From a virus (lineage: Duplodnaviria; Heunggongvirae; Uroviricota; Caudoviricetes): DNA of 37,584 nt. Below, piece after piece: positions 33,001 to 36,000 of this stretch. The first letter of the stretch is position 1; each line of letters opens with the position of its first letter. The stretch is from the IMG/VR virus record IMGVR_UViG_2537562191_000055; one strand, 5' to 3'. Made by a program: the position numbers.

Positions 33001-36000
33001 GGCTTTTTTGTTTTTCTTTACTTTCATTTTCTGTCGGCGGTGACGGAGACATACATCAGATGGAAAAAATCACAACAGGTGTGTCATACACCACGTCAGC
33101 GGTGGGGACGGGATACTGGTTACTGCAGCTGCTGGACAAAGTCTCTCCGTCCCAGTGGGTGGCAATAGGTGTGCTGGGAAGTCTGCTGTTTGGCCTGCTG
33201 ACGTATCTGACAAATCTTTATTTCAAGATTAAAGAAGATAAGCGTAAGGCTGCGAAAGGTGAATAATGTCGCCGTCATTACGCAAGGCTGTTGCAGCTGC
33301 TATTGGTGGTGGGGCTGTTGCCATAGCGTCTGTGCTCATCACTGGTCCAGGTGGTAACGATGGTCTGGAAGGTGTCAGCTACATACCATACAAAGATATC
33401 GTTGGCGTATGGACTGAACCGCCCCGGAAATCCTGGAGACTAAACTCCCTGAGAAAGAGGTAAACAGGATGACTAAAAATACTCGTTTTTCCCCCGAAGT
33501 CCGTCAGCGGGCGATTCGTATGGTTCTGGAAAGTCAGGATGAATATGACTCACAGTGGGCGGCAATTTGTTCCATTGCCCCAAAGATTGGCTGTACGCCG
33601 GAGACTCTGCGTGTCTGGGTTCGCCAGCATGAGCGGGATACCGGGGGCGGTGATGGTGGGCTCACCAGCGCTGAACGTCAGCGTCTGAAAGAGCTGGAAC
33701 GTGAAAATCGTGAACTGCGCCGCAGTAACGATATCCTTCGCCAGGCTTCCGCTTATTTTGCGAAGGCGGAGTTCGACCGCCTCTGGAAAAAATGATGCCA
33801 CTGCTGGATAAGCTGCGTGAGCAGTACGGGGTCGGACCGGTATGCAGCGAACTGCATATTGCCCCGTCAACGTATTACCATTGTCAGCAACAGCGACATC
33901 ATCCGGATAAACGCAGTGCCCGTGCGCAGCACGACGACTGGCTGAAGAGAGAGATACAGCGCGTATACGATGAAAATCATCAGGTGTACGGTGTGCGTAA
34001 AGTCTGGCGTCAGTTGTTACGGGAAGGAATCAGGGTGGCCAGATGTACAGTGGCACGTCTCATGGCGGTTATGGGACTTGCCGGTGTTCTCCGGGGTAAA
34101 AAGGTCCGTACGACCATCAGCCGGAAAGCCGTTGCCGCAGGCGACCGCGTAAACCGTCAGTTCGTGGCAGAACGACCTGACCAGCTGTGGGTGGCTGATT
34201 TTACTTACGTCAGCACATGGCAGGGCTTCGTCTATGTGGCGTTTATCATTGATGTGTTTGCCGGATACATCGTGGGGTGGCGGGTCTCATCGTCTATGGA
34301 AACGACATTCGTGCTGGATGCGCTGGAGCAGGCGTTGTGGGCCCGTCGTCCGTCTGGCACCATCCATCACAGCGATAAAGGCTCTCAGTATGTGTCACTG
34401 GCCTATACGGAGCGACTAAAAGAAGCCGGATTACTGGCATCAACAGGGAGTACAGGCGACTCGTATGACAACGCGATGGCTGAGAGCATCAATGGTCTTT
34501 ACAAAGCGGAGGTAATACACCGTAAGAGCTGGAAAAACCGTGCAGAAGTGGAACTGGCCACACTAACGTGGGTGGACTGGTATAACAATCGACGATTGCT
34601 GGGAAGGCTGGGCCATACTCCTCCGGCAGAAGCAGAAAAAGCTTATTATGCTTCCATCGGAAACGATGATCTGGCAGCCTGAGTTCACAGATAAAACACT
34701 CTCCAGGAAACCCGGGGCGGTTCAGACTGTATGTCACGGACACACCGGAAAAGACATCATGCCCGGTAAAACGTATACCGAAGCAGAATGCAAAGCCCTC
34801 CTGAATAAAGACCTTGCCACGGTCGCCAGACAAATTAACCCGTACATCAACGTCGATATACCGGAAACAACGCGCGGCGCTCTTTACTCGTTCGTTTACA
34901 ACGTGGGCGCTGGCAATTTCAGAACATCGACGCTTCTTCGCAAAATAAACCAGGGCGATATCAAAGGCGCATGTGATCAGCTACGGCGCTGGACATACGC
35001 TGGCGGTAAGCAATGGAAAGGGCTGATGACTCGCCGCGAGATTGAGCGTGAAGTCTGTTTGTGGGGGCAACAATGAGCAGGGTAACTGGATGTGGTGCTG
35101 GACGAGGCGAAGTCATGAGCGCCGGGATTTACCCCCTAATCTTTATATAAGAAACAATGGATATTACTGCTACAGGGACCCAAGGACGGGTAAAGAGTTT
35201 GGATTAGGCCGAGACAGGAGGATAGCAATCACTGAAGCAATACAGGCCAACATTGAGTTATTTTCAGGACACAAACACAAGCCTCTGACAGCGAGAATCA
35301 ACAGTGATAATTCTGTTACGTTACATTCATGGCTTGATCGCTACGAAAAAATCCTCGCCAGCAGAGGAATCAAGCAGAAGACTCTCATAAATTACATGAG
35401 CAAAATTAAAGCAATAAGGAGGGGGCTGCCTGATGCTCCACTTGAAGACATCACCACAAAAGAAATTGCGGCAATGCTCAGTGGATACATAGACGAGGGC
35501 AAGGCGGCGTCAGCCAAGTTAATCAGATCAACACTGAGCGATGCATTCCGAGAGGCAATAGCTGAAGGCCATATAACAACAAACCCGGTCGCTGCCACTC
35601 GCGCAGCAAAATCAGAGGTAAGGAGATCAAGACTTACGGCTGACGAATACCTGAAAATTTATCAAGCAGCAGAATCATCACCATGTTGGCTAAGACTTGC
35701 AATGGAGCTGGCTGTTGTTACCGGGCAGCGAGTTGGTGATTTATGCGAAATGAAGTGGTCTGATATCGTAGATGGATATCTTTATGTCGAGCAAAGCAAA
35801 ACAGGCGTAAAAATTGCCATCCCTACAACATTGCATGTTGATGCTCTCGGGATATCAATGAAGGAAACACTTGATAAATGCAAAGAGATTCTTGGCGGAG
35901 AAACCATAATTGCATCTACTCATCGTGAACCGCTTTCATCCGGCACAGTATCAAGGTATTTTATGCGCGCACGAAAAGCATCAGGTCTTTCCTTCGAAGG

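Follow-up and report, generated by a model that had tools for sequence, protein, structure and literature searches.

Organization of the prophage and its lysis region

The window, which denotes the whole 37,584-nt stretch of DNA analyzed here, was a lambdoid prophage located at lambda attB (ybhB–ybhC) of STEC serogroup O111. Homology to related loci identified the cargo at window positions 1-12000 and 27100-28200 as espJ, cif, nleH, an nleG-like gene, a Lom/Ail family gene and lpxR. Strains differed in whether espJ, cif and the nleG-like gene were each intact or frameshifted, and lpxR was inserted with a remnant of Q on one side and a second, intact copy of Q on the other. Such an arrangement is typical of exchangeable effector loci. 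The tail and head genes occupied the minus strand as far as a truncated portal gene, followed by a second IS629 copy (IS2) and then by a nin-Q-nanS-S-R block on the plus strand, which led straight into a lambda-type int facing ybhC. The prophage was devoid of terminase, Rz/Rz1, the immunity or replication region, and xis. It is thus defective, and non-viable with or without the insertion sequence (IS) in the endolysin gene R described below. The features of the lysis region and the other IS629 copies are summarized in Table 1.

Table 1. Features of the interrupted lysis cassette and IS629 copies in the window
Feature	Position	Strand	Details
Third IS629 copy, cut by the window start	1-381	-	100% identical; target duplication ATC
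Second IS629 copy (IS2)	22508-23816	-	1309 bp, frameshifted
Class II holin (phage 21 S-type pinholin), intact	33060..33266	+	68 aa; Pfam PF04971 Phage_holin_2_1, E 1e-32
Endolysin gene (R), interrupted	33266-35076	+	ATG at 33266, stop ends at 35076
Endolysin 5' fragment	33266..33414	+	codons 1-49 and first two bases of codon 50; predicted SAR domain, E35, D44, T50
Target site duplication, left copy	33412..33414		GAC; single GAC in empty-site genomes
IS629/IS1203 copy in R, complete	33415..34724	+	1310 bp, IS3 family
Terminal inverted repeats of the IS in R	33415-33439 and 34700-34724		22/25 matching
IS629 orfA	33469..33795	+	108 aa, helix-turn-helix; Pfam HTH_Tnp_1, E 2e-12
ALIL pseudoknot	33750..33866	+	orfA/orfB overlap; Rfam RF01497
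IS629 orfB	33792..34682	+	296 aa, DDE/rve catalytic domain; Pfam rve, E 9e-28; HTH_21, E 4e-18
Target site duplication, right copy	34725..34727		GAC
Endolysin 3' fragment	34728..35076	+	third base of codon 50 to codon 165 and stop
i-Spanin gene Rz remnant	35073..35086	+	ATGAGCAGGGTAAC, 14 nt; divergence from intact R-Rz cassette after 35086
Filler at the R/Rz and int junction	35087..35104	+	TGGATGTGGTGCTGGACG, 18 nt
Lambda-type integrase	35090..36166	+	Pfam Phage_integrase and Arm-DNA-bind_1; RefSeq CDS; followed by attL and ybhC

The holin gene, the product of which is named 'class II holin family protein' in RefSeq, was located immediately upstream of R with its stop codon overlapping the endolysin ATG (TAATG), the position of a pinholin gene that goes with a phage 21-type SAR endolysin. 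The holin-endolysin-spanin cassette was incomplete on the distal side, where only 14 nt of Rz were left and Rz1 was wholly absent.

The IS629 copy in the endolysin gene

Both ends of the element in R read TGAACCGCCCCGG as imperfect inverted repeats, and its sequence ran from TGAACCGCCCCGG to CCGGGGCGGTTCA, beginning with TG and ending with CA as in the IS3 family. The terminus motif occurred five times in the window against 0.05 occurrences expected, and the five matches corresponded to the IS in R, the second complete copy and the third copy cut by the window start. Since TG both opens the IS and follows the GAC in the right flank, the flanking repeat could be read as GACTG as well as GAC. 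The canonical IS629 termini fix the boundary, and the duplication was therefore assigned as 3-bp GAC, in agreement with the size of 3-4 bp for IS629 target duplications (PMC3271280).

The ALIL pseudoknot was matched over its full length with 121.5 bits (gathering score 50) and sat at the overlap of orfA and orfB, where the RefSeq annotation joins the two frames by a 'programmed frameshift'. The two genes are accordingly annotated as one unit, and their linkage through a programmed -1 frameshift is predicted from these motifs. Copies identical to the IS in R at all 1310 bp (100%) were present in many E. coli genomes, in which IS629 was found in up to about 50 places per genome. RefSeq labels these identical copies 'IS3-like element IS1203 family transposase', and the assignment of the element was made through them. 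IS1203 is an isoform of IS629 first found in O111:H- (PMC3271280), and the name IS629 would be right insofar as the two names are used interchangeably. The copy in R is intact and looks active.

Identity of the interrupted gene

The element had entered after the second base of the codon for Thr50, the last residue of the E35-X8-D44-X5-T50 triad. T50 is still encoded by the 5' fragment because the IS begins with T. As it stands, this fragment ran on into the IS up to a stop codon ending at 33463, giving a 65-aa product in which the predicted SAR anchor and the three catalytic residues are followed by 15 IS-encoded residues. The 3' fragment retained 115 residues of the lysozyme fold, and was without a start codon, SAR domain, export signal and catalytic triad. 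RefSeq annotates the former as a pseudogene missing the C-terminus and the latter as 'lysozyme RrrD, missing N-terminus'. No further mutations were found in the two halves. Neither fragment is expected to be a working muramidase, so that the function of R would be lost. An ORF of 142 aa (34648-35076) was also observed, which opens with an ATG within the right end of the IS and extends through the endolysin 3' fragment in the same frame. A transcript from the IS could cover it; its product, having neither SAR domain nor catalytic triad, is probably meaningless.

The earlier note on this DNA had proposed that R, taken as a SAR endolysin gene, was inactivated by simple insertion of a 1310-bp IS629 with duplication of GAC, and that excision would restore a continuous lysozyme. 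In silico excision of 33415..34727, comprising the IS and one GAC, indeed gave a 498-nt ORF encoding 165 aa. Such an open frame is not diagnostic, as nearly every in-frame deletion near the junction also stays open, and frame restoration was thus dropped as proof in favor of comparison at the DNA and protein levels. The rejoined protein contained one full-length Phage_lysozyme (GH24) domain (PF00959, E 8e-46, profile positions 3-125 of 125), which was split in the window as it stands. Residues 1-165 aligned with residues 1-165 of RrrD (4zpu; E 6e-108) and of R21 (3hde) without any gap at the joint, differing at 6 and 8 of 165 residues, respectively. The rejoined R was identical over 498/498 nt both to the intact R of the O111 strain E2863, in which the site was empty, and to R of the intact S-R-Rz cassette in strain 2013C_3653. 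Stx2 phages 1717 and 2851 contained an uninterrupted match to the rejoined S-R segment (714 nt, 99.9% identity), with Rz following in both.

The rejoined sequence bore E35, D44 and T50 in agreement with the lysozyme triad motif E-X8-D-X5-T (PMC9239132). In residues 8-27, 13 of the 20 positions were Gly, Ala, Ser or Thr, with one difference (V18I) from the SAR domain of R21/RrrD. Homology to R21/RrrD thus points to an N-terminal SAR segment, which would be exported by Sec and released on depolarization. The same alignments assign the target gene as a predicted SAR endolysin of the phage 21 R/RrrD type, a GH24 'true lysozyme'. The proposed insertion was correct to the nucleotide, and the predicted inactivation falls within the Thr50 codon of the triad.

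The Rz remnant and the integrase junction

The region downstream of R was compared with an intact R-Rz cassette and with the normal xis-int junction of the O26 prophage at the same site. Homology to int began at 35105 with its first 11 nt missing, and the filler between the Rz remnant and this position matched neither the intact Rz nor the xis-int reference in the alignment. The annotated int start was an ATG inside the filler (35090), by which the first codons were replaced (MWCWT... instead of MGRR...). The tblastn and blastn searches detected no Rz homology elsewhere in the window and no terminase homology in it, ruling out Rz/Rz1 or terminase at another place in the window as the reciprocal product of a rearrangement.

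R and int were co-oriented at this junction. Co-oriented R and int are impossible in a normal lambdoid prophage. The nin-Q-S-R block must therefore have been inverted, and the R-int junction, with both genes pointing the same way, is not one that a simple internal deletion could produce in a lambdoid prophage. An inversion followed by a deletion next to IS2 would be the simplest history of this junction.

IS2 carried a 1-nt deletion at IS position 164 and 12 substitutions, all inside IS positions 93-294. It adjoined the truncated portal gene and had no target duplication (ATCAT–IS–CTTGC), which suggests that an IS-associated deletion took the N-terminus of portal, terminase, cos and the early region. 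IS2 was found in both empty-site and occupied O111 genomes.

Distribution of the insertion in O111 genomes

The 1952-nt rejoined holin-R-int sequence was used as a query against 5426 complete E. coli genomes. The R-int junction was detected in 46 genomes, all of which were O111 where a serotype label was given. The site was occupied exactly as in the window in 27 of the 46, where the query matched in two pieces spanning 3265. Another 12 genomes had the empty site predicted by excision, with a single GAC and a one-piece match (100.0% in ten, 99.9% in one and 99.8% in one). The remaining seven carried a rearranged site and matched only from the right-hand GAC onward. The left R-IS junction was present in 31 genomes, none of them labelled with another serotype. 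The reference O111:H- strain 11128 was among the genomes already annotated in RefSeq with pseudogene halves around the IS. The insertion is thus polymorphic within one clonal serogroup.

The loss of Rz, the 18-nt filler and the odd int start were common to the empty and occupied genomes (all 46, including the 12 with intact R). In E2863, the one empty-site genome examined in full, the truncated portal next to IS2 was already there, and terminase, the replication and immunity genes and xis were absent. The damage to Rz/Rz1, portal and the early region must be older than the insertion or have arisen independently.

The third IS629 copy (window 1-381) was inserted in a small hypothetical gene near espJ, 33 kb from the R site, and was also polymorphic in O111. 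When the state of the R site was compared with the presence or absence of this copy, all four combinations were found. The existence of all four requires at least one loss or regain of an IS. The copy was missing in four genomes. In one of these, 2013C-4081, direct reading of the third-copy site showed that 2 nt of the ancestral sequence were deleted (CTGA^ATCC vs CTGAATATCC), and the other three showed the same query offset. This deletion is a mark of imprecise IS excision, a process that is demonstrably active in the O111 lineage. Because a neighboring IS site bears such a footprint, the insertion in R may be reversible as well. The four-gamete pattern and the footprint weaken the use of the empty sites as proof of a 'recent' insertion. 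The insertion either arose within the O111 lineage or was partly reversed there.

Secondary rearrangements from the IS in R

All seven genomes of the rearranged class lacked the left flank beside the C-terminal half of R, and the structure of RM9131 was the one read in sequence. In this genome (NZ_CP028429 849610-863320, corresponding to window 4808-34727), both R halves ended in GAC and each was joined to the right inverted repeat (IRR). The N-terminal half of R was inverted together with the holin-through-nin block, window positions 4809-22507 containing all tail and head genes were deleted, and the IS beside the C-terminal half of R was of the frameshifted IS2 type. RM9975 had the same junction of the R N-terminus to IRR. 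Homologous recombination of two inverted IS copies alone was ruled out for this type, because the N-terminal half joins IRR rather than IRL and recombination inside the IS cannot give such a junction. Two candidate routes can be considered: an extra insertion and an IS-IS inversion followed by deletion between the 13-bp identical termini of the inverted repeats, or a Tn10-like inside-end inversion-deletion into the same GAC.

Strain 14614 (NZ_CP077460, 3765724-3782575) represented a different type. Judging by the coordinates at which its three junctions matched, the entire prophage would have been inverted by homologous recombination of the IS in R with the IS at window 381. The derived rearrangements retained the same GAC junctions. 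After their insertion, the IS629 copies of this prophage become drivers of inversions and deletions.

Decay and selection at the lysis locus

We propose that IS629 (IS1203 isoform), moving by a copy-out/paste-in route, made a simple insertion into R of a pinholin/SAR-endolysin cassette, duplicating GAC and splitting the gene in codon 50. The outcome is an anchored fragment of 65 aa and a promoterless, anchorless C-terminal fragment with the remaining 115 residues. The host prophage would by then have lost Rz/Rz1, terminase, the N-terminus of portal, the early/immunity/replication region and xis. With a probability of roughly 0.85, we consider the insertion a late and nearly neutral step in the erosion of a dead prophage by a highly active IS, and not an adaptive knock-out of lysis. 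The persistence of the prophage would be owed mainly to the type III effector genes that it carries.

The order of events is the point on which the leading alternative differs. The insertion could be old and ancestral to O111, and the 12 intact R genes could be revertants generated by precise excision promoted by IEE, the IS-excision enhancer. This history is consistent with the four-gamete pattern that the R site forms with the window 1-381 site, and with the excision footprint at the latter. Moreover, O111:H8 harbors IEE, which acts on IS3-family elements to promote their simple excision (PMC9943667, PMC9397093). At the R site, however, none of the 12 empty genomes contained a footprint, ten being 100.0% identical to the rejoined query and the other two still matching in one piece. 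When the R site is taken alone, one gain with ancestral empty sites is equally or more parsimonious. We regard reversion as unlikely, at about one chance in a few.

The earlier note had also taken the disruption of R together with the loss of Rz as independent evidence of selection against, or decay of, lytic capacity. The loss of Rz itself was confirmed. As evidence of decay the two lesions fit, and selection against lysis is not needed to account for them. As independent evidence of selection they are not borne out, because the prophage is non-viable with or without the IS, and the 12 genomes with an intact R have lost Rz too. An adaptive knock-out would suppose that residual expression of the pinholin and the SAR endolysin is harmful, for example when Q of a co-resident prophage might trans-activate the late promoter, and that Rz loss and R disruption were two independent hits. 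The holin and Q are indeed still intact, as is R in the empty-site strains, and neither holin nor spanin is required for a SAR endolysin to lyse cells (PMC9239132), so that some residual toxicity, and hence some gain from knocking out R, is conceivable. The occupied allele is also in the majority (27 simple and 7 rearranged of 46).

Against this, the loss of Rz was no targeted hit but one effect of a large rearrangement, in which much else was removed or displaced, and the 12 genomes retain an intact R with no other lesion in it. The insertion was a single event in one lineage only. IS629 generally favors prophage DNA or is tolerated there, with 62% of the copies in O157 lying in such DNA (PMC3271280). 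Little selection would be expected in any case, since a cell in which another phage supplies Q would already be lysed by that phage. An adaptive origin thus appears improbable, clearly more so than reversion, and near-neutrality of the insertion is what these observations suggest.

A still more doubtful proposal is that the IS in R acts as a reversible on/off switch, in which IEE-promoted excision restores the SAR endolysin beside the intact pinholin, or, in a related reading, that GAC at codon 50 is an IS629 hot spot hit independently by an RM9131-type inside-end event. If the switch were real, it would provide control of a residual lysis module at the level of subpopulations in an otherwise defective effector prophage. 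Misplacement of the IS by mis-assembly can be practically dismissed: a repeat present in up to about 50 places is a classic source of such errors, but the same junctions and target duplication recur in 27-31 independently assembled complete genomes, and the derived rearrangements hold the same GAC junctions.

Erosion of a dead prophage by an active IS is accordingly the reading carried forward. The structure itself is already known, as RefSeq annotates the pseudogene halves flanking the IS, and the insertion in R is a textbook case of IS-driven prophage erosion. The lineage data make a modest addition, namely that IS629 copies drive inversions and deletions and that excision of a nearby IS leaves footprints. 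With its occupied, empty and rearranged alleles, the site can serve as a clean marker for typing strains of STEC O111. The case also illustrates that the relative timing of lesions in a prophage has to be worked out before each is taken as an independent sign of selection.

Comparison with known systems

The element and its behavior resembled those of IS629/IS1203 in the prophages of O157:H7 (Rump et al. 2011, PMC3271280). The length of 1310 bp, the termini, the 3-bp duplication, the orfA/orfB pair with a -1 frameshift and ALIL pseudoknot, and the location in a lambdoid prophage were shared, as were the strain-to-strain polymorphism in presence or absence and the later IS-IS rearrangements. 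Unlike the copies in the O157:H7 catalogue (PMC3271280), the host here was O111 and the copy was annotated as IS1203 in RefSeq.

The target agreed with the phage 21 cassette (S21, R21, Rz/Rz1) and with RrrD of DLP12 (PDB 3HDE/3HDF, 4ZPU) in its Phage_holin_2_1 holin, its Gly/Ala-rich, predicted SAR segment at the N-terminus and its E35-D44-T50 triad, and the gene order S-R-Rz with overlapping stop and start codons was that of phage 21. In contrast to that cassette, R was split by an IS, Rz was cut after 14 nt and Rz1 was absent. Moreover, whereas the phage 21 cassette is followed by cos and terminase, the cassette here was fused to the integrase gene.

The host prophage was comparable with the defective ('grounded') effector prophages of EHEC at ybhB-ybhC in O26, O103 and O157, with which it shared the att site, a lambda-type int, the kind of cargo (espJ, cif, nleH, nleG-like and lpxR), IS copies and multiple inactivating lesions. 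The O111 prophage was distinguished from the others at this site by the inversion of its nin-Q-S-R block relative to int, which gave a junction with R and int transcribed in the same direction, whereas the O26 prophage at the same site retained the normal xis-int arrangement.
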